A DNA stretch of 64,000 bases, taken from assembly GCA_963785085.1 (NCBI GenBank), contig CAWAUD010000007.1, forward strand, positions 28,613 to 92,612, read 5' to 3'. A model generated the notes under the pieces. It did not search any database. It saw only the letters and a program-made list of their open reading frames with translations, and was not told the origin of the DNA. The DNA is from an uncultured Solirubrobacterales bacterium (GTDB taxonomy: Bacteria; Actinomycetota; Thermoleophilia; Solirubrobacterales; JBBDJG01). The translations under genes and the position numbers were made by a program. This document shows positions 30,542 through 41,617 of the stretch, one piece after another; position 1 is the first letter of the stretch; each line of letters begins with the position of its first letter.

Positions 30542-32772
30542 ATGTCCTCTTCGCCGTCCTCTTCCCGGAATTCGACGACCCTCGCGGGCCGGATGGGTCG
30601 CTGGAGCGCGACCCACCGCAAGGCCGCGATCCTGGGCTGGTTCGGCTTCGTGATCTTCGCCATCTTCGTCGGGATGACCGTCAGCCCGAACAAGATCACC
30701 GACGTCGACGGGTTCAACGGAGAGTCGCACCGCGCCGAGCAGGCACTGGACCAGTCCGGCCTGCGGCCGACGAGCGAGGCGGTCTTCATTCAGAGCAAGG
30801 ACCTGACGATCGACGACCGCCAGTTCAAGGCGGCGGTGCAGGACGCGACGCGCAGCGTCGGGAACGTCAAGTACGTGCGGAATGTCGAGTCACCGCTGCG
30901 TGGAGGGGGCCAGGTCACCACGGACGGCCATTCGGCGCTCGTGCAGTTCGATATCGCAGGCGACTCGGTGGAGACCGCGGATCGTGTCGATCCGGTCCTC
31001 ACCGCCGTCGACGGCGTCAAAGACCGGCATCCCGCAGTGCTCGTCGAGCAGTTCGGTGACGCGAGCGCCAACAAGGCGGTCAGGGACACGATCAACGACG
31101 ACCTCGCCAAGGCCGGAGAGCTCTCGATACCGATCACCCTGATCATCCTGCTCTTCGCCTTCGGCAGCTTCGTGGCAGCCGGGATACCGCTGCTGATCGG
31201 GATCACCTCGGTGATCGCCGCCCTGGCGCTGGTCGGGGTTCCGAGCCAGGTCTTCCCGATCGACGACAACCTCTCCGCCGTGATCCTGATGATCGGCCTC
31301 GCAGTCGGCGTCGACTACTCGCTCTTCTACCTGCGGCGGGAACGCGAGGAGCGGCGCTGCCGGCCGCAGTCCCGAAGACGCGCTTCAGGTCGCTGCGTCG
31401 ACCTCGGGACGCGCCGTGCTGATCTCCGGCTTGACCGTGATCGTCGCGATGGCCGGAATGCTGATCAGCGGCGACAAGACCTTCATCGCATTCGCGGTCG
31501 GGACGATGCTCGTCGTCGCCATCGCGGTGTGCGCCTCGCTCACCGTCCTGCCGGCGATGCTGGCCTGGCTCGGAGACCGAGTCGACAAGGGGCGGATTCC
31601 GTTCCTCGCGCGCAGGCGCGCCGGGGGCGCGCAGTCGCGGTTCTGGACCGCGATCGTCGACCGCGTGATGCGCCGTCCGGTGGTGGCGCTCGTGCTGGCC
31701 GGCGGCGCGCTGATCGCGCTGTCGATTCCGGCGCTCAGCTTGAAGACCGTCGTGACCGGCGTCGACGACCTGCCGCAGGACCTCGCCGTGATCAAGACCT
31801 ACAACCAGATCAGGAAGGTGTTCCCGACGGAGGGAGTCACGGCCACCGTCGTCGTCAAGGCGGACAACGTGCGCTCCGGTCGAGGCCGCGGCCGGGATCG
31901 AGAACCTGCGCCGCCAGCTGCAGGCGTCCATCTACCCGCCGGGACCCGACGTCACCTACAGCAAGGACAGCACGGTCGCGAAGATCGACGTCGCAACCCC
32001 CGGCACGGGGACCGACGCCGCATCCACCGACGCGCTCGACGAGATCCGGGGCGAGATCATTCCCGAGACGATGGGCGGCATCGGTGGGACGAGCGTCAAC
32101 GTCACCGGAGACGCAGCCGCCTCCACCGACTTCAGGGACCAGCTGGACAGCAGGTTGCCCCTGATATTCGCCTTCGTCTTCGGCCTGACATTCATCATCT
32201 TCCTGGTCACCTTCCGCTCGATCGTCATCCCGATCAAGGCGATCCTGCTCAACCTGCTCTCGGTTGGAGCCGCGTACGGCGTGCTCGTGCTCGTCTTCCA
32301 GGACGGACACGGCGAGTCGCTGCTCAACTTCTCCTCGAACGGGGGCGTGACCTCATGGCTGCCGCTGTTCCTGTTCGTGATCCTGTTCGGGCTGTCGATG
32401 GACTACCACGTCTTCATCCTCTCGCGGGTGCGCGAGCTGCACGACCGTGGCATGCCGACGGACCAGGCGGTCCGTGAGGGGATCACGGCGACCGCGGGCA
32501 CCGTCACCAGCGCCGCGTTGGTGATGGTCGGCGTATTCGGCGTCTTCGCCACGCTGGACTTCCTCGACTTCAAGGAGCTCGGGGTCGGACTGGCGGTGGC
32601 GGTGCTCATCGACGCCACCATCGTGCGGGCGGTTCTGCTGCCCGCGTCGATGCGAATTCTGGGCGACTGGAACTGGTATCTGCCGAAGTGGCTCGAGTGG
32701 ATCCCCCGGGTCCGCTCGGAGGACGAGGTGGCCCCTCCGTTCGAGGACGACACAGCAGCGGCTCCCGTGTAA
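30542..32772 (+). CDS. MMPL/RND family transporter (frameshifted)
   Basis: IGLAVGVDYSLFYLRREREE, LFGLSMDYHVFILSRVRE, LIDATIVRAVLLPA. Confidence 0.9.
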
Positions 32773-32814: not shown

Positions 32815-33396
32815 GTGGAGGCCTCAGCACACAGCCATCACGATCACCACGCGATGCCGACCTCGGGGGCGGCGCTAACCGCGGTTGCCTTCAGCGCGAC
32901 GCTGCACTGCCTGACCGGCTGCGCCCTCGGCGAGATCGCGGGGATGGCGATCGGCACGGCGATGGGGCTCTCGAACCTCGCCACGATCGTGCTTGCGATC
33001 GTGCTGGCGTTCGCGTTCGGCTACACGCTCACCAGCCTCCCCCTGCTGCGCGCGGGCCTGGCGCTGAGCGCCGTCGTGCCGATCGCGCTGGCTTCGGACA
33101 CCTTGAGCATCCTGACCATGGAGATCGTGGACAACGTCATCGTCCTGACGATTCCTGGCGCGCTGAACGCGGGCCTCGGCGATCTGCTGTTCTGGGGCAG
33201 CCTCTCCTTTTCCCTGGTGATCGCGGGCGCGTTCGCGCTGCCCGTCAACCGCTGGCTGATCGCGCGCGGCAAGGGCCACGTCGCGGTCCACGAGACGGGT
33301 ATCCACGGCGGCCCGCCGCCCCGGCTCGTCGCCATCGTCGCGGCGGCGGGGTTCATCTTCGGAGCGGTCGTGCTGGCGGCCGAGGCAATTGGCTAG
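32815..33396 (+). CDS. DUF4396-like membrane protein with His-rich N-terminus
   Basis: HSHHDHH; ATLHCLTGCALGEIAG; MEIVDN; PVNRWLIARGKGH. Confidence 0.8.
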   Translation: MEASAHSHHDHHAMPTSGAALTAVAFSATLHCLTGCALGEIAGMAIGTAMGLSNLATIVLAIVLAFAFGYTLTSLPLLRAGLALSAVVPIALASDTLSILTMEIVDNVIVLTIPGALNAGLGDLLFWGSLSFSLVIAGAFALPVNRWLIARGKGHVAVHETGIHGGPPPRLVAIVAAAGFIFGAVVLAAEAIG

Positions 33397-33682
33397 CCCG
33401 CCGACACGCGGATACACCGCCTCCAAGGACCAGCTGCTGAAGCGGCTGAGCCGGGTCGAGGGCCAGGTGCGGGGTGTCGCGAGCATGGTCGAGGACGACC
33501 GCTACTGCATCGAGATCCTGACGCAGATCTCAGCGGTGCAGGCCGCGCTCGACAAGATCGCGCTCGGCCTGCTGGACGGCCACGCGCGCCACTGCCTCGC
33601 CGGTGAGGGCGAGGGCCCGGTCGAGCCGGGCGATCAGGCCGACGAGCTGATGGGCGCCGTCGGCCGGATGCTGCGCCGCTGA
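33389..33682 (+). CDS. csoR: Copper-sensing repressor, CsoR family
   Basis: LKRLSRVEGQVRG..DRYCIEILTQISAV..HARHC (C-H-C ligands). Confidence 0.9.
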   Translation: MASPPTRGYTASKDQLLKRLSRVEGQVRGVASMVEDDRYCIEILTQISAVQAALDKIALGLLDGHARHCLAGEGEGPVEPGDQADELMGAVGRMLRR

Positions 33683-33720
33683 CCGCAGGCAAGCGCGCCG
33701 GATCGCGCTAGCCTCGGCGC

Positions 33721-34441
33721 ATGTGGGGTTGGAGGCTCCTGGCCTGCGCCGGCGTTGCCGTGGCACTTCCCGCGCTGCCGGCGGGAGCGGCGAGCCAGAA
33801 CGTCAACGCGACCGGCAGCAACACGTTCGAGCCCGCCAACGTGACGATCCTTCAGGGTGAGTCGGTTTCGTGGCAAAACGACAGCGGGTCTCACAACGTG
33901 CACTTCGAGGACAACGCCTTTGTCCAACCGCCGGCGCCTGATTCATCGGCTTGGAGCACCACGCGGACGTTCCCGACACCAGGCGTCTACAAGTACTACT
34001 GCGACGCACATGTGACCTCGGACAACATGCGCGGGCACTGTCACAGTCCTGCCTCCCGGCAGCACTCCCCCACCGCCACCTCCGCCGGTCACCGACAAGT
34101 CCGCCCCCGCCCTGAAGCTGAGCGGCAAGAGCACCCAGCGTGTGCTTCGCCAGCGCGCGGTGCGCCTGGTGGTGCGGGTCGACGAGGCGGCGAGCGTGCT
34201 CGCGCGTGGGCGAGTCTCGGTTCCAGGAGCGAGCGCGACCGTCCGCGCGCGCGACGCCAAGGCGCAGCTCGTTCGCGGCCGCGACACGAAGCTGCGGCTG
34301 AAGTTCACGAGCAAGTCGCTGCGCCGGCTGCGCGGGGCGCTCCGCAAGCGCTCGGTTCTCACCGCGCGAGTGACGGTCACCGCCACCGACAAGGCCGGCA
34401 ACAAGCGCACGCTCAAGAGCAAGTTCGCGCTGCGGCGCTGA
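33721..34441 (+). CDS. Secreted plastocyanin/azurin-type cupredoxin with basic C-terminal domain (frameshift near 34037)
   Basis: Signal peptide; SHNVHF..YYCDAH..MRG type-1 Cu ligands; tail ..VTVTATDKAGNKRT..LRR. Confidence 0.8.
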
Positions 34442-34477
34442 CTTGTCGCGGACCCGGCGCCGGGTTACGCTCACCGC

Positions 34478-35407
34478 ATGAGGGTCCGTTGGCAGGGGAT
34501 CGGAGTCCTCGTTGCGGTCCTGTTCGTCTGGCCGGCATCAGCCGGCGCGGCCAACCAGACCGTCGAGGCAACACCCTTCAGCCAGTTCACACCGAACAGC
34601 GTCACGGTGGACGTGGGTGACACGGTGACGTGGAACAACACCGGCGGCTTTCACAACGTCGTGTTCGACGACGGCTCGTTCACCCAGCCGAACCCGCCCA
34701 GCTTCGAGAGCTGGTCGGTCTCGCGGAGCTTCCCGACCACGGGAACGTTCCGCTACTACTGCCAGATTCACGGCTTCCCGGGCGGGGGCGGGATGTCGGG
34801 CACCATCACGGTCAACAGCCCCAGCTCGGAGCTGAAGCCCTTCCGCACGCCACTCGCCGTCGCGTACAAGCCGTGCCCGGAGGCGAGCGCGAACCGCAAG
34901 CACGCCGACCCGCTGGGCCACCCCGCGTGCAGCCCGCCGGTGCCGGTGTCCGACTACCTGACCGTCGGGACGGCGGACAGCAATCAGCGCAAGACGAGCT
35001 CGGTCGGATCGGTGACGGCCGCCGCGGATGCGGGGAACATCCGCCTCGCCGCTTCGGTCACCGACGTGCGCCAGAAGGCCGGGCTCGGCGACTACCGAGG
35101 CCAGCTTCAGGTGAAGCTGCCGCTGCGGATCACCGACTCGAGCAACGGCCCGGCATCGAACGAGCGCGCGACCGGCGACACTTCGTTCACCGTCCCCGTC
35201 CCCTGCAGCGCGACCGCGGACTCGAGCACCGGCTCGACGTGCGCGATCACGACGACCGTCAACGCGCTCAACCCGGGCGCAGTGGTCGAGGGCCAGCAGG
35301 CGATCTGGGAGATCGGCGCCGTGCAGGTGTTCGACGGCGGCTCGGACGGCGTCGCGGCCACTCCGGGGAACACCCTCTTCATGGATCAGGCGCTGTTCGT
35401 GCCCTGA
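34478..35407 (+). CDS. Secreted cupredoxin with ~190-aa Cys-containing C-terminal domain
   Basis: Signal peptide; FHNVVF..YYCQIHG..MSG; ends QALFVP. Confidence 0.85.
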   Translation: MRVRWQGIGVLVAVLFVWPASAGAANQTVEATPFSQFTPNSVTVDVGDTVTWNNTGGFHNVVFDDGSFTQPNPPSFESWSVSRSFPTTGTFRYYCQIHGFPGGGGMSGTITVNSPSSELKPFRTPLAVAYKPCPEASANRKHADPLGHPACSPPVPVSDYLTVGTADSNQRKTSSVGSVTAAADAGNIRLAASVTDVRQKAGLGDYRGQLQVKLPLRITDSSNGPASNERATGDTSFTVPVPCSATADSSTGSTCAITTTVNALNPGAVVEGQQAIWEIGAVQVFDGGSDGVAATPGNTLFMDQALFVP

Positions 35408-35802
35408 GCCGCGGCGTCGAGCTCCCTCACCAGCGCATCGACGCGCTCTGCTATCTCGTCGCGCACCACCCGCACCTCTTCGACGGGCAGGCCCTTCGGG
35501 TCCCGCAGCTCCCAGTCGAGATAGCGCTTGCCCGGTATGTAGGGGCACTCGTCCCCGCAGCCCATCGTCACCACGACGTCGGCGCGCTCGGCAAGCTCCT
35601 TCGTCAGCTTTCGGGGCCGGCGACCGGCAAGGTCGATGCCAAGCTCACGCATCGCCTCCACGACCTCCGGGTGCACTCGATCGCCAGGGGTGGTGCCTGC
35701 CGACTCGGCCGCATGGCGACCCGCGGCAGCCTGCTCGAAGAGCGCCTGGCTCATCTGAGAGCGGCCGGCATTGTGCAGGCAGACGAAGAGGACGCGCGCC
35801 AC
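35386..35802 (-). CDS. arsC: Arsenate reductase, LMW-PTPase family
   Basis: VLFVCLHNAGRSQMS, VTMGCGDECP, DWELRDP. Confidence 0.92.
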   Translation of the reverse strand: MARVLFVCLHNAGRSQMSQALFEQAAAGRHAAESAGTTPGDRVHPEVVEAMRELGIDLAGRRPRKLTKELAERADVVVTMGCGDECPYIPGKRYLDWELRDPKGLPVEEVRVVRDEIAERVDALVRELDAAAQGTNSA

Positions 35803-35803
35803 G

Positions 35804-36487
35804 TCAGGCCGACACCGGGTGCTCGCCGCGGACCAGCTGGTAGGCGAGTGCGCCGAGCGCCGCGCCCACGACTGGCCCGACCACGTAGACCCAGAAGTCG
35901 CTCCATTCCCCGAGACCAGCGCGGGGCCGAACGAGCGCCCGGGGTTCATCGACGCTCCGGTGATCGGCCCGCCGAACAGCGCGTCCAGGCCGACGGCGCC
36001 CCCGATCGCGATCGCGGCGGCTGCTCCCACCGCGCGCGTATCCGTCGCCACCGCCGTTATGACGAACATCAGCAGCGCCGTCATCACCGTCTCATAGACG
36101 AGCGCGCTGCCGGCTCCGACCGTTGGAACCGTTGCGCCGAGATTCGCCGGGGCACTGGTCCAGACCGCCAGCAGGAGCGAGCGCCCCCGCGGTCGCGCCG
36201 GCGAGCTGCGCCGCCACGTACACGAGCGCATCCCGCCGCGGGAAGTGACGGGTGAGCGTGAAGGCCACCGTGACTGCTGGGTTGATGTGCGCTCCCGAGA
36301 GGTGACCGGTCGCGTAGACCATCACCATGATCACGAGGCCGAAGACGAGCGCCACGCCGACCGTGCCGAGCGGGTTCTGCCGCACGGCATCCGTGACGAT
36401 CGCTCCGCAGCCTGCGAACACCAGCGCGAAGGTGGCAATGCCCTCGGCGGCCGCCCGCCGGCCGAGGCCGGGCCGCGCGCCCGTCAC
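35804..36487 (-). CDS. Aquaporin/MIP channel, probably arsenite-permeable (frameshifted)
   Basis: SGAHINPAVT and GASMNPGRS (NPA/NPG) motifs; located in the ars operon. Confidence 0.88.
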
Positions 36488-37320
36488 GCGGCGAGCGAGA
36501 CGCCGATCACCTTCAGCCTGCGCGTGAGTGCGTTCAGCCCGTACTCGCCGAGTGCGCCGTCCTCCACGCCGAGGACGTCCCAGGCTCCCTCGCTCGGCGG
36601 CGACACGGATTCGGCGACCGCCGGCAGGAGGTCGAGCAGCCGCTCGCGGATCACCTCCGCCATGCTCGGGTCCGCGGCGACGGCCTGCTGGAGGAACTGC
36701 GTGCCCCAGGCGATGTGGCGCTGCTCGTCAGCGGCGATTCGGCCGTATCCGTCGACGAACCCCGGCAGGACGCCGCGGTCGCTCAGGAAGTCGAGCAGGA
36801 AGTGGGACGCCGTGATGCCGAGCGTTCCCTCGATGATCATGTGGTAGATCGTCACGAAGTCGACCTTCGCCTCGCGGTCGGCGGGCTCGCGCCGCAGCCG
36901 GTCGTGGGCGTTGACGAGCGCTTCGTCGAAGACCCTGCGAAACGGGTCGCCGAGCACCTCGCGAGCGCGCGCGACGTGGGCGCCGATCGCCGCCGGGTCG
37001 GCGACGACCTCGTTCTGAAAGCGCGCGTAGAACTGCATGTGGCGCACCTCGTCGACCAGCTGGGTCGACAGGTAGCTGCCCTCCTCCTCGTCGTCCTGCG
37101 CCAGCACCAGACCGCAGAACTGCGTCGAGATCCGCTCCTCCGCCACCATCAGCGAGCTGAGCACCCAGTAGAGGAGATTGCGCTGCTCCTCCTCGAGCGC
37201 CTTCCAATCGGACTTGTCCTGCTCGAGGTCGATGTCCTGGGCGGCCCAATGGGCGCGCTCCCAGTCCTCGTAGAGCTGCTGCGGTGTGCGCAGGCGCGGC
37301 TGCGCGGCCGCGGCACTCAT
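36484..37320 (-). CDS. Ferritin-like diiron-carboxylate protein of the R2/R2lox family
   Basis: AEERI, DEVRH, YHMIIEG, DEQRH; N-terminal WERAHW..DIDL..D..DW. Confidence 0.85.
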   Translation of the reverse strand: MSAAAAQPRLRTPQQLYEDWERAHWAAQDIDLEQDKSDWKALEEEQRNLLYWVLSSLMVAEERISTQFCGLVLAQDDEEEGSYLSTQLVDEVRHMQFYARFQNEVVADPAAIGAHVARAREVLGDPFRRVFDEALVNAHDRLRREPADREAKVDFVTIYHMIIEGTLGITASHFLLDFLSDRGVLPGFVDGYGRIAADEQRHIAWGTQFLQQAVAADPSMAEVIRERLLDLLPAVAESVSPPSEGAWDVLGVEDGALGEYGLNALTRRLKVIGVSLAA

Positions 37321-37757
37321 GAGCAGCAGGCAACCGGCTCGGCGTTCGCCTCCAGGTTGCCCGCGTCCGCGTGAGCGTCGCTGTCGCCATGCGTGGTGAA
37401 GACCTCCCACGGCGTTCCGTCGGGGTCGTGCACCCAGATCTTGTCCTGCCGCGCGTAGCAGCAGGTGGTGTCCATCTCGTCGAAGGTCGCAAGGCCGGCC
37501 TGCGTCAGCCGCAGCCGCGCGGCGAGCACGTCGTCGGTCGATCCAACCTGGATGCCGGCGTGGTTGAACGCACCGAGGCGGCCGTCGGCGCGGTCGCCCT
37601 CGTTGAGGGTGAAGTTGAGCGCCGGATCGGCGACTTCGAACTTCGCGTAGCCGGGCTTCACCTTCACCGGCGCGGCACCGAACAGCGCCTCGTAGAAGGG
37701 AACCGACCGCTCGATGCTCGAGACGGTCAGCGCCAGGTGTGGTCTCAGGACAGCCAT
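37317..37757 (-). CDS. arsI: ArsI/CadI family C-As lyase (VOC fold)
   Basis: HLALTV..FYEALFG..YAKFEVADP.LNFTL, NHAGIQV, TTCCYARQDKIWV.DPDG..WE, C-terminal CC. Confidence 0.85.
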   Translation of the reverse strand: MAVLRPHLALTVSSIERSVPFYEALFGAAPVKVKPGYAKFEVADPALNFTLNEGDRADGRLGAFNHAGIQVGSTDDVLAARLRLTQAGLATFDEMDTTCCYARQDKIWVHDPDGTPWEVFTTHGDSDAHADAGNLEANAEPVACCS

Positions 37758-38098
37758 TCGCTCAGCTCCTCGAGTGCTTCTGCGTGGACGAAGTAGTAGG
37801 CCCACAGGCCCTGCTTCTCGTAGCCGACGATGCCGGCGTCGCGCAGGACGCGCAGGTGATGCGAGACCGTCGATTGCGAGAGGTCGAACAGCGGCACCAG
37901 CTCGCAGACGCAGACCTTGCCGGCGTGCTTTCGCAGCACGTCGACCAGCTGGACCCGCACCGGATCGCTGAGCGCCCGGGCGAGATTCGCCAGGCGGGCC
38001 GCCTGATCCGGCGACGCGTCCGGGTACACGACGGGCTCGCAGCAAGCCTCACCGGCGGCGCGCTTCTGCTTGGGAGCCAGCGTTAGATCGACGGTCAT
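37745..38098 (-). CDS. arsR: ArsR family repressor
   Basis: ALSDPVRVQL..VCVCEL..LSQSTVSHHLRVLRDAG; N-terminal CC. Confidence 0.92.
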   Translation of the reverse strand: MTVDLTLAPKQKRAAGEACCEPVVYPDASPDQAARLANLARALSDPVRVQLVDVLRKHAGKVCVCELVPLFDLSQSTVSHHLRVLRDAGIVGYEKQGLWAYYFVHAEALEELSEWLS

Positions 38099-38185
38099 CG
38101 ATCTAACACGCTACCAGCTATTTGCGGTGGTCGGCCTTTTCCGGCGTATAACCGTAAAACGCCGACCAGCGCCGGTTGTTGGAGG

Positions 38186-39337
38186 CTAGTGCTCGGGAAC
38201 CGGTGCGACCGGGGGGCCCGTGTAGTGCGGAACCGTGTCGGCCTTGTAGACCACGGCGCGGTTGCGGCCGCGGCGCTTGGCCTCGTACATCGCGCGGTCT
38301 GCGGCGTGCAGCAGAGCCTCGACGGTCTGACCGTGCGTCGGGTAGGTGACGATGCCGAAGCTGATCGAGACCGGCAGCGCGCCGCGGCGGGCGGGCTTGC
38401 CGTCGTGCGCGGTGCCGAACATCTCGGAGAGCTCGCGGCGGACGCGCTCGGCCACCGAGAAGGCGCCCTTGGAATCGGTGAAGGGAGCGATCAGGGCGAA
38501 CTCCTCGCCGCCCATCCGCGCGGCGGTGTCGATCCGGCGGCGCGTGGTGTCGAGCAGCTGGCCGACCTTGGCGAGGACGTCGTCGCCGGCCGGGTGCCCG
38601 TAGCGGTCGTTCAGCTCCTTGAAGCGGTCGAGGTCCCCGACGATCAGGCTGAGCGGGCGGCCGCTGCGGCGAGACAACTCGAGCTCGTACTCGATGCGGT
38701 CCATGAAGCCGCGTCGGTTCAGCAGGCCGGTGAGGTAGTCGGTCTTCGCCGAGTCGGCGAGGCGCTTGATCAGGCTGTCCAGGCGCTCCTTCATGCGGAC
38801 CACCAGAGCGGCGGCGGCACCGAATGTGGCCACCGAGAGCACCCAGTTGGCGCCCTCGCCGGGCCCGGGGTCGGTGAGCGCGAGCGCAGCGCCATAGGTG
38901 ACGGCGATCGCAACGATGTGGACGGCGACCATCCGGCGGGTGTAGAAGTAGGCGGCGTAGAGCGACAGCAGCAGGAAGAGCATCTCCTCGTGAGACGGCG
39001 AGCGCTTGCTTCCGTAGAAGTAGACGGCGGTGGCAACCCCGGCACAGCCGGCGAGCGTGAACACGGGGTAGAGGGAGTCGCTGATGCGGCGGCCGAGCAG
39101 TGCGAAGAGGCCGGAGAAGGCCAGCAGCACCCCGGCGGTGGCGAGCAGGCCGGCCGAGTTGGCCTCGGCGGAACCGGGAAGCGCGACCGGCGCCGCTACG
39201 ACTACGGCGCAGACGAGGAAGAGCCAGGCCGCGACGCGGCTCTTGCTGGTTCCATCTGCATGCTTTTCGGAGGCCTGGGCGTCGCCAGGCTCGCGCACGT
39301 GGAGAGGGGCCGAGGGAGGCTTGCGCTCTTGTGCCAT
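38186..39337 (-). CDS. Membrane-bound diguanylate cyclase (GGEEF, RxxD I-site)
   Basis: ~6 TMs; DYLTGLLNRR, DLDRFKELNDRYGH..GD, RRID..RMGGEEF, ADRAMYEAK. Confidence 0.93.
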   Translation of the reverse strand: MAQERKPPSAPLHVREPGDAQASEKHADGTSKSRVAAWLFLVCAVVVAAPVALPGSAEANSAGLLATAGVLLAFSGLFALLGRRISDSLYPVFTLAGCAGVATAVYFYGSKRSPSHEEMLFLLLSLYAAYFYTRRMVAVHIVAIAVTYGAALALTDPGPGEGANWVLSVATFGAAAALVVRMKERLDSLIKRLADSAKTDYLTGLLNRRGFMDRIEYELELSRRSGRPLSLIVGDLDRFKELNDRYGHPAGDDVLAKVGQLLDTTRRRIDTAARMGGEEFALIAPFTDSKGAFSVAERVRRELSEMFGTAHDGKPARRGALPVSISFGIVTYPTHGQTVEALLHAADRAMYEAKRRGRNRAVVYKADTVPHYTGPPVAPVPEH

Positions 39338-39344
39338 GCGATCA

Positions 39345-39371
39345 CAATCGGCCGCCCGCTTTCAACCTTGA
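39345..39371 (-). promoter_or_regulatory. Sigma28 (FliA/WhiG/SigD)-type promoter of the diguanylate cyclase
   Basis: Minus strand TCAAG-N14-GCCGATTG, 7 nt before the ATG. Confidence 0.65.
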
Positions 39372-39418
39372 CAGCTGAGCCGCGCCCTGCAACGACAAGC
39401 TGAGCCGTTGACGGAACG

Positions 39419-40036
39419 TCAGGCTGAGGCGGTCCCGTCGGGGTAGAGGGCGTGAACCCAGATGGCGGTCAGCGCGTCGGCTGTTTCCTCCGGCGTCCGC
39501 CCCTTCAGCAGTCCCACGTAGTGGCAGCGCTCGCCCATCCAGACGAGCACTTCGGCACTGCGGTCGGGATCCACGTCCTGGCGCAGCTTCCCGGCGTCGC
39601 GCTCGCGGCGCAGGTGCTCCTGGGTGGCGCCGATGAAGTCGTCCATCAGGCCGTTGTAGAACTTCGAGAACTCCGGGTCGTACGACATCACCTCGACGGC
39701 CGCCCGCAGCACACCGGCATGCGTCTCCCACAGAGCGCCGATGTTACGGGTCACCGAGTGGATCATCACGGCGGGCTCGCCCTCTCCACTCCACCACTCC
39801 GCCGCCTGCTCGATCGCGATATCGCGGAGCCCCTCGAGCACGGCCCCGAGGACCTGGTTCTTGTCGTTGTAATAGAAGTAGAACGCTGTGCGGGACAGCC
39901 CGGCCTCCCGCGCAAGCTCGTCGACGGTCACGTCGTTGAACGGCTTGTGCTGGAGAACCCGCACCAGCGCGTCGCGTACATCCGCGACGATTGCCGCGCG
40001 GTCGCGCCGCTGCGATTTCTCTTCCTGGGCCTCCAC
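39419..40036 (-). CDS. TetR/AcrR family regulator
   Basis: FNDVTVDELAREAGLSRTAFYFYYNDK HTH. Confidence 0.9.
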   Translation of the reverse strand: MEAQEEKSQRRDRAAIVADVRDALVRVLQHKPFNDVTVDELAREAGLSRTAFYFYYNDKNQVLGAVLEGLRDIAIEQAAEWWSGEGEPAVMIHSVTRNIGALWETHAGVLRAAVEVMSYDPEFSKFYNGLMDDFIGATQEHLRRERDAGKLRQDVDPDRSAEVLVWMGERCHYVGLLKGRTPEETADALTAIWVHALYPDGTASA

Positions 40037-40202
40037 CCCGAGTGACCAACCTAGCCGGGATCGGTGCTTAAAGGGGAAAATAACGCGCTTATGGGGACAA
40101 TAGTTCGCGCCTATATCGCGGCGCGCGAGCGCGAGCCTTTACGATGAGGAGCCTCTGGCCGGTGCGGCCCGGGAGTGAACCCGTAGCGTCAGTCCCCAGC
40201 GC

Positions 40203-41617
40203 ATGAAGATCCCCTCGGTCCTGATCATGGCCGCCGGCCGCGGAACGCGCATGCGGTCCCAGCTGCCGAAGGTGCTGCACCCGCTCTGCGGGCGGCCGCT
40301 TCTGCTGTGGCCGGTCGAGGCCGCGCGCGAGGCCGGCGCGGAGCGGATCGTCGTGGTGCTCGGCAAGGGCAGCGAGGACATCCAGGCGGTGCTGCCGCCT
40401 GACGTCGAGATCGCGATCCAGGATCCGCCGGCCGGGACAGGCGATGCGGTGGTTGCGGCGCGCGAGGCGCTCGGCGACTCACAGGACGTGATCGTCCTGT
40501 CAGGCGACCACCCGCTGCTCGACGCCGGCTTCATCACCGCGCTCGCCGAGCGGCACTCCTCCGCCGGGGCGGGCGCGACCGTCACCACCCGCGTGATGGA
40601 GGACCCCGGTCAGTACGGCCGCATCGTGCGTGACGCGCAGGGCGACGTGGAGCGGATCGTCGAGACCAAGGCGCCGGGCGACGCGACTCCCGAGGAGCTC
40701 GCGATCCGCGAGATCAACAGCGGCACCTACGCCTTCGCGGTCGGTCCCCTGTACGAGGCGCTCGCCAAGGTCGGCACCGACAACGCCCAGGGCGAGATGT
40801 ACCTCGGCGATGCCCTGCCGCACCTGCGCGCGCGACGGCCGGCGGGTCGTCGCGCACCTGACGGACGACGAGGCCGTCAGCCTGGGCATCAACACGCGCG
40901 CCGACCTGGCGCTGGTGCAGGAGCAGGCGCGCCGCGGGCTGCTGGAGCAGCACATGCTCGCGGGCGTGACGATCGCCGATCCTTCCTCCACCTGGATCGA
41001 TGCCGGCGTGCGGGTCGGCGAGGACACCACCATCGAACCGTTCACCATGCTCCGCGGCCACACCGAGGTCGGCGGGGGCTGCACGATCGGCCCGGGCTCG
41101 ACGCTGGTCGACTGCGTGGTCGGTGACGGCTCGTCGGTGCTGCACTCCTACCTCGACCGCCTGCGAGGTGCGCAGCCGCTGCACGGTGGGACCGTTCACC
41201 CACATCCGCCCCGGCACCGTGCTGCAGGACGGCTCGAAGGCCGGGTCCTTCGTCGAGATCAAGAACTCGGACATCGGTGAGGGCGCGAAGGTTCCCCATC
41301 TCACCTACCTGGGCGACACCGATCTGGGTGCCGGAGCAAACGTCGGAGCCGGCACCATCACCGCCAATTACGATGGCCGCGCAAAGCACCGGACCACGAT
41401 CGGGCGCGGCGTAAAGACGGGCGTGCACACCGCGCTGGTGGCGCCGGTGAACGTCGGCGACGACGCATACACTGGCGCGGGCTCGGTGATCACGGAGGAC
41501 GTGCCGCCGGGCGCGCTCGGAATCACGCGCCCCGTGCAGACGAACGTCGAGGGATACGCGGAGCGGCAGCGGCAGGCAGCGGACAACGAGGGGAAGGCCG
41601 GTAAGACGGATGGCTGA
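40203..41617 (+). CDS. glmU: Bifunctional GlcNAc-1-P uridyltransferase/acetyltransferase (frameshifted)
   Basis: [37 protein letters not shown], hexapeptide repeats, GTITANYDG. Confidence 0.95.

Follow-up and report, generated by a model that had tools for sequence, protein, structure and literature searches.

What does a protein related to the R2 subunit of ribonucleotide reductase (RNR) do inside an arsenic operon? The window analyzed here is a 64,000-nucleotide stretch of contig CAWAUD010000007.1 from an uncultured Solirubrobacterales bacterium (assembly GCA_963785085.1; the genome, G000, is 52% complete, with closest homologues that carry a Solirubrobacterales label). An operon on its minus strand, at 35386–38098, has the gene order arsR-arsI-X-aquaporin-arsC, where X encodes an R2lox-like dimetal-carboxylate protein of 278 amino acids (36484–37320, minus strand; PF00268, E 1.4e-16). 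X shares an ATGA overlap with arsI (37320–37317) and a GTGA overlap with the aquaporin gene (36487–36484), both as described in the initial annotation, and the arsI-X joint was spanned without gaps by a DNA contig of another run (37025–37380, 8 differences). The overlapping joints, together with the linkage across the clade described below, bear out the earlier view that X is integral to the operon, and X is a recurrent gene of ars operons. This operon role is well supported, and X is likely to be an undescribed arsenic gene. Judged from its sequence and setting, X may be an O2-dependent oxidase that converts methylarsenite (MAs(III)) or dimethylarsenite (DMAs(III)) to less toxic pentavalent forms, standing in for ArsH; we give this reading a probability of roughly 0.4.

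The family and fold of X were investigated with profile and structure comparisons. Its best NCBIfam matches were R2lox models, with all five scoring below cut-off (best NF006200, 133.2 vs. 194), and R2lox proteins made up the top 15 of 25 PDB sequence matches (best 7QBP, E 3.5e-25). An AlphaFold model built from 94 sequences had a predicted local distance difference test score (pLDDT) of 93.5. Against R2lox 4HR0, this model gave a Z-score of 31.6 and a root-mean-square deviation of 2.1 over 257 aligned residues, the next match standing at Z 26.4, and the ten best Foldseek matches were all R2lox (template modelling scores 0.80–0.85). By this model, X has an R2-type ferritin-like fold that is closest to R2lox. 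The predicted metal ligands E61, E91, H94, E164, E199, and H202 were each 100% conserved in the 114 rows of the clade described below, and alignment to GkR2lox gave the same set for both, four Glu and two His with Glu as the first ligand. The initial annotation had read ligand and Tyr positions from two motifs, and these stand where it put them: AEERI holds E61, while DEVRHMQFY holds E91, H94, and Y98. The ligand set fits Fe/Fe and Mn/Fe alike, and the metal is reported not to be assignable from sequence or structure in such proteins (PMC4118035).

Databases hide the X clade under the name ribonucleoside-diphosphate reductase beta chain, and the possibility that X is a class I RNR beta subunit was therefore considered. 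X exceeds the PF00268 cut-off, carries this name in JGI records, and has a Tyr at the radical position; aligned to Escherichia coli NrdB (hhalign probability 91.5), E61 falls on the first-ligand Asp and Y98 on the radical Tyr. The alignment stops at NrdB residue 326 of 376, X lacking the last ~50 residues, so that the R1-docking tail is missing as the initial annotation had noted, and its observation that no nrdA or nrdE lies nearby also stood, with no R1 gene among the open reading frames of 30–44 kb. Beta-subunit NCBIfam models gave X just 20–24 bits vs. cut-offs of 237–310. Each of the five carrier genomes checked (91–96% complete) held a single PF02867 gene, 70–89% identical to the NrdJ of locus L196 and split in one genome (G168); in the window's own, 52% complete genome, a search with this query showed nrdJ only, on contig C16. 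Lacking a docking tail, and with the class II NrdJ as the sole large subunit in the carriers checked, X does not qualify as an RNR subunit, and we regard the database annotation as having a negligible chance of being correct.

To place X among its relatives, we used the best 80 of 429 GTDB stretches encoding an X relative and added 40 weaker matches, phylum-wide matches, and R2lox loci. The tree comprised 166 proteins and was a quick IQ-TREE run with support from the Shimodaira–Hasegawa-like approximate likelihood ratio test (SH-aLRT) alone. One protein with an internal stop (L058), 26 duplicates, and the unpublished L160 were left out of it, and L193, mis-cut in the tree, was re-cut for the residue table. 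A locus was called ars-linked when an ars gene (at least 45% identity to the queries) lay within 2.5 kb; most loci outside the clade had 1.5 kb flanks, and 13 of the 15 sister paralogues had 3.5 kb. X fell in a clade of 114 rows, including the window's own, with an SH-aLRT support of 100 and a branch length of 1.02. Ars linkage was found for 103 of the 114 clade members vs. none of the 52 outside paralogues. An independent scan seeded with L079 found linkage in 67 of 80 metagenome loci and, among the 38 with 900 nt or more of upstream sequence, in 31. As kin are not independent, these counts are descriptive rather than statistical. The initial annotation had named a rarity of homologues in ars operons as one point against its reading, and the clade members instead recurred there. 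The X clade is a real, ars-specific, R2lox-like branch misannotated as RNR beta. X is also under purifying selection, with ratios of nonsynonymous to synonymous polymorphism (pN/pS) of 0.04–0.05 vs. two close strains and 0.08–0.17 for its neighbors.

Matches of at least 51% identity were counted by hand in ~88 of 300 genomes of the order (a count that includes the unpublished G221, and two sister proteins also reach 51%). Among the matches listed for 401 genomes of the phylum, none outside the order exceeded 45% identity, and clade members outside the order were found in four of 151 genomes of the class of G688, one of them ars-linked. On plasmids, 34 records matched, all at <60% identity (best rows 24–33%) and without a clade member. 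In three soil RNA runs, 6–7% of words were represented, by contigs in which relatives were mixed. No printed description of an R2-like ars gene was found, in a search that did not cover most subscription journals or supplementary tables of ars genes.

The gene orders around X were compared on its own strand in 115 loci. The most frequent was arsR-arsM-X (56), followed by arsR-X (13), X alone (11), arsR-arsI-X-aquaporin-arsC (9), arsR-arsI-X (7), arsR-arsI-X-arsC (4), arsM-X (3), and arsR-arsM-X-aquaporin-arsC (3), with nine others seen once each; X was kept through 16 such orders with ars genes. Overall, arsM was present in 65 of the 115 loci and arsI in 20, and no locus had both. Directly upstream of X, among the best 80 of the 429 stretches, stood arsM in 48 cases (one frameshift-fused to arsR), arsI in 11, and arsR in six. 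An earlier suggestion that X handles ArsI products is weakened by this balance of arsI and arsM. Of the 112 loci at 51% identity or more, 82 had arsC no further than 2.5 kb away. ArsM was over the cut-off of NF008823 in three of three proteins tested, and one confirmation each was obtained for ArsN1a, ArsJ, its GAPDH, and Acr3.

A comparison with a genome of the same genus (G052; locus L113, contig C3, 199900–207700 vs. window 33000–40500) showed the operon and its flanks to be syntenic. ArsR, ArsI, and ArsC were 94%, 89%, and 87% identical between the two, but X was only 56% identical and belonged to the other subclade, and DNA identity fell to 61–72% across the aquaporin gene and X. This pattern suggests that the X slot was refilled in place, not emptied, perhaps together with the aquaporin gene. 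Apparent ArsM-X and X-aquaporin fusions were seen in eight longer matches; in the six that were read, the sequence at the joints or past them is out-of-frame junk. These are frameshift artefacts and are therefore no evidence of partnership. At one locus (L021, 5468–5986), an arsinothricin-resistance acetyltransferase gene, arsN1a (194 bits vs. 170), lies between arsM and X. The X-containing ars clusters, in several loci among L025–L081, often adjoin an arsJ-GAPDH pair and ppx-, CHAD-, pst-, phoU-, and ppk-like genes, the latter of which we take to be phosphate-related.

The metal site of the clade has been remodelled. Clade-specific positions in X include L57, M58, A60, I64, Y98, H115, H139, G168, Y192, and I203. 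R2lox proteins typically carry Phe where class Ia proteins have the radical Tyr. Tyr98 was present in all 114 clade rows and all 80 metagenome loci, and the same position was Phe in 15/15 sisters, 21/21 distant paralogues, and 15/16 R2lox rows; of 150 proteins that represent 50% clusters, 39 had Tyr at 98, and each of these matched the clade best. So clean a Phe-to-Tyr switch is a natural experiment in dimetal-site tuning. The initial annotation had pointed to a Glu first ligand combined with this Tyr, and both are present in X; the combination is not a unique hybrid, as class Id NrdBi has both and is reported to form no tyrosyl radical (PMC6754362). A tyrosyl radical in X is not implied, because class Id has Glu and Tyr without one.

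Around the ligands, A60, I64, G168, and S/F172 of X correspond to G68, V72, A171, and Y175 of GkR2lox. Position 64 was Ile in 114/114 clade rows and Val in 52/52 others, and Y159, the equivalent of the cross-link tyrosine Y162 of GkR2lox, was 100% conserved in all groups. The cross-link of GkR2lox joins V72 and Y162, and its Val is reported to be completely conserved in R2lox (PMC6060897). An Ile64-Tyr159 link may nevertheless form in X, because a V72I variant of GkR2lox is reported still to form the link (PMC6060897). The ligand channel of R2lox is described as lined by A171 (PMC4118035), and the fatty-acid-channel positions G68 and A171 are Ala and Gly in X by sequence alignment.

From these features, an O2-dependent oxidase is proposed because the closest folds activate O2, the metal site has been rebuilt, and ArsH was not found over cut-off in any of 80 genomes of the order, carriers and non-carriers included; arsM was present in 54 of the same 80. 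ArsM acts on MAs(III), as does ArsI according to PMC6514093, and MAs(III) or DMAs(III) is proposed as the substrate because both of these enzyme neighbors handle MAs(III). In the mechanism envisaged, ArsR would derepress the operon on As(III), X would load Mn/Fe or Fe/Fe, and the reduced cluster would activate O2. A small arsenical would bind where R2lox binds its fatty acid and take up an oxygen atom. More speculatively, the cluster might then be re-reduced by a housekeeping donor or by another As(III) molecule, as X has no reductase encoded next to it. The part of Tyr98 and Tyr192 would be to tune the site or to protect it, and a stable radical would not be required. A broader proposal comes close to even odds: X would be the first non-flavin, ferritin-like dimetal arsenic enzyme, an R2lox offshoot with the new Tyr98 and Tyr192 and an altered channel that carries out either oxygen transfer to methylated arsenic or cleavage of its C-As bond, possibly with the arsenical as the reductant.

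Several observations weigh against methylarsenite oxidation. Neither arsM nor arsI stood on the strand of X in 30 of the 115 loci, and 11 of the 114 clade members had no ars neighbor at all. In three of five genomes with such an orphan X, an ArsR of the X-operon type was missing at E 1e-20, one of these searches concerning a genome (G264) that is 95% complete and in one contig. At the genome level, arsM was as frequent with the X clade (27/40) as without it (27/40), and 13 of the 40 carriers had no arsM match; these groups were picked by best E-value, and not all members were placed in the tree. The absence of ArsH does not discriminate, because non-carriers lack it too, and no substitute oxidase was seen beside arsM in 20 non-carrier loci, where downstream open reading frames were read by eye without a family scan. 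Among the gene clusters neighboring X, no partner reductase recurred. No cysteine is conserved across the clade, C69 being present in 81% of subclade A and 0% of subclade B. The ArsR of the window is likewise without the Cys101-102 signature of MAs(III)-selective repressors.

The same observations bear on the alternatives. X could instead protect from arsenic-induced oxidative stress, with its dimetal site consuming peroxide, superoxide, or arsenic peroxyl species and arsenic transformation not being its main job. Any ars partner would suit such a function, which fits the arsR-X order of 13 loci and the finding of no genome-level dependence on arsM; the missing Cys and reductase and the persistence of orphan copies agree with it as well, and class Id R2, which also has Glu and Tyr, is reported to scavenge superoxide (PMC7239806). 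A general stress gene, however, should need no tight coupling behind arsM or arsI, and the nearest fold is R2lox (Z 31.6), not Dps, ferritin, or rubrerythrin (~11). We consider this explanation unlikely, albeit the leading alternative. In another reading, X attacks the methyl group or the C-As bond of methylarsenicals, through hydroxylation or through an oxidative demethylation such as that of DMAs to MAs, which would feed ArsI, or it makes a modified organoarsenical together with ArsM. The tight coupling to arsM or arsI speaks for this. The extra redox-capable Tyr near the site is in keeping with such chemistry, and R2lox is reported to perform a two-electron C-H oxidation in forming its cross-link, although its cofactor reportedly left primary carbons unoxidized in a cross-link test (PMC6060897). 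Beside arsM (65/115), however, demethylation would cycle futilely, and two partners in a biosynthesis should be found strictly together, which X and arsM are not. The apparent ArsM-X fusions proved to be artefacts, and we regard this account as improbable.

Marginally less probable again is that X keeps an ancestral, lipid- or acyl-oxidizing, R2lox-like role, or repairs an acyl or lipoyl target damaged by arsenic, and is merely co-regulated with or carried by the ars operon. The cross-link Tyr159 and a beta-branched residue at 64 have been kept, 11 copies are orphans, and SCP2 lipid-binding domains are found fused to distant paralogues. A patchy presence (~88 of 300 genomes) is hard to reconcile with a housekeeping role, as are an ars linkage that extends over 16 gene orders and two phyla-level groups and the apparent in-place replacement in G052. 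The least probable of these four is that X serves as a cytoplasmic oxidase of inorganic As(III) or Sb(III). By its cysteines, ArsR is of the type that responds to inorganic arsenic, and all operon types have As(III) in common. Yet arsC makes As(III) for efflux, and because it lies near X in 82 of the 112 loci, the As(III) oxidase put forward in the initial annotation would oppose it and be futile, an argument that spares Sb(III). The oxidation of methylarsenite or dimethylarsenite is accordingly still the reading we prefer.

Within the window, the remaining genes of the operon also lie on the minus strand. The arsR gene (37745–38098) encodes an ArsR/SmtB repressor of 117 amino acids (PF01022, E 3e-16; NF033788, 90 bits vs. 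a cut-off of 55) with Cys19/20 and Cys63/65 and without a C-terminal Cys pair near 101-102. It is overlapped by 13 nt by arsI/cadI (37317–37757), which encodes a VOC metalloenzyme of the C-As lyase family (146 amino acids; NF041414, 161 bits vs. 116) with a Cys99-Cys100 pair. Beyond X lie the gene for an aquaporin (MIP), likely an arsenite channel (35804–36487; PF00230, in two frames), and arsC (35386–35802; PF01451, E 2.2e-22), encoding an arsenate reductase of the low-molecular-weight protein tyrosine phosphatase type with Cys8/82/86. This ArsC scored 76 bits with TIGR02689, below the cut-off of 157.6, and no NCBIfam ArsC model was over cut-off. Three-frame translation showed the aquaporin gene to be broken by two frameshifts, near 36175 and 35910. 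These are probably assembly errors, because a metagenome contig (L252), 95.25% identical over 2400 nt of the operon, differs by exactly two one-base indels. Frameshifts also split an MMPL-like gene (30542–32772) and a glmU-like gene (40203–41617) of the window and the nrdJ on contig C16 of its genome. With so many indel errors in the assembly, broken genes in the window are therefore unreliable.

The start codon of arsR is spanned by a perfect 10-6-10 inverted repeat (38082–38107, no strand assigned), which is likely an ArsR operator on a leaderless transcript. At the 5' ends of clade arsR genes, ATCGAT-like boxes were present in 82 of 88 and TTGACA-like −35 elements in 75 of 88, and a Shine-Dalgarno motif in none of the 88; the patterns were loose and were counted without a shuffle control. 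No TTGACA −35 element was found upstream of the window's own arsR, and a scan of the window returned 0 promoters and 0 terminators. Abutting the operon at 33389–35407 are genes for a CsoR-type metal repressor, a DUF4396 protein, and two plastocyanin-like proteins, the last of which overlaps the 3' end of arsC by 22 nt. Together with the ars operon, this region is a small copper/arsenic island.

Paralogues outside the clade were also inspected. Distant R2-like paralogues (L158, L159, P0141, P0227, P0247, and P0207) are fused to SCP2 lipid-carrier domains, and one to an alpha/beta hydrolase. They represent an unnamed R2lox-like family that is probably lipid-acting, and the SCP2 domains would point to lipid substrates in the ancestral family. 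Sister paralogues with Phe98 (L139, L142, L143, L146, L147, L148, L150, and L154; 42–50% identical to X) are in many cases divergent from a TetR-type regulator gene, and L147 and L148 are then followed by a glmU-like gene, as at 40203 in the window. The window itself has a TetR gene (39419–40036) beside its glmU-like gene and no R2-like gene there. A further family, f12 (L160–L177), comprises R2-like paralogues of ~357 amino acids with 33–36% identity to X, found in 12 loci between prfB-like and ftsE/ftsX-like genes (names by sequence reading, without a family scan). At L138 (G236, contig C5), another R2-like gene, 29% identical, lies in tandem behind a sister paralogue.

The physiological substrate of R2lox is stated to be unknown (PMC9314684). 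If the proposed function holds, an orphan R2lox lineage would gain a defined physiological substrate, and a missing step of arsenic cycling would be revealed in about a third of Solirubrobacterales genomes. That chemistry becomes open to testing with a relative of R2lox whose genomic setting points strongly to a small substrate that can be assayed. For a soil order with frequent arsM and no ArsH found, a new ars enzyme would likewise mean a further step in what becomes of methylated arsenic in soils.

Compared with known arsenic enzymes, X would resemble ArsI as an ars enzyme that depends on O2 and a metal and has MAs(III) as its substrate, and it adjoins ArsI in the 20 loci noted above. ArsI has a VOC fold and a Cys pair, whereas X is a ferritin-like dimetal protein without conserved Cys. 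ArsH, ArsU, and ArsV are flavin enzymes, while X gave no match to ArsH or flavoprotein models. X shares with these and with ArsZ the setting in ars operons and the predicted reaction. All four are named as organoarsenical oxidases (PMC11719878, bioRxiv 10.64898/2026.08.27.747368); to the oxidases listed in the initial annotation, ArsH and ArsV, ArsU and ArsZ are to be added as known MAs(III) oxidases (PMC11719878).

Among R2 proteins, X resembles class Ia E. coli NrdB in that the Trp, His, Glu, and radical-Tyr positions align, and differs in its first ligand (Glu, not Asp), the lack of a C-terminal tail, and the lack of nrdA/nrdE. With class Id NrdBi/R2d it has in common the Glu first ligand and a Tyr that aligns with the radical Tyr of class Ia (PMC6754362), but the fold is more distant (6CWO, Z 22.3, 16% identity), X has no R1 partner or docking tail, and where the Facklamia ignava protein is reported to have Glu239/Lys243/Trp246 (PMC6754362), X has Ser65 and Phe68 at +4 and +7. 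X is most like R2lox, which is its best match in sequence and fold and with which it shares four Glu and two His ligands, the cross-link Tyr (Y159 = Y162), and the lack of an R1 partner; one such protein, GkR2loxI, is reported to be an alkane monooxygenase (PMC10867098). It is nevertheless ~26% identical to R2lox and ~30 residues shorter at the C-terminus. Of the features that mark R2lox, X lacks the cross-link Val, the Phe at the radical position, and a score above any of the five curated model cut-offs, having Ile for V72, Ala for G68, Gly for A171, Ser/Phe for Y175, and Tyr rather than Phe four residues after the first His. Its setting differs as well, with X found in an ars context and two plasmid R2lox loci lying by genes of the acyl-CoA ligase family.

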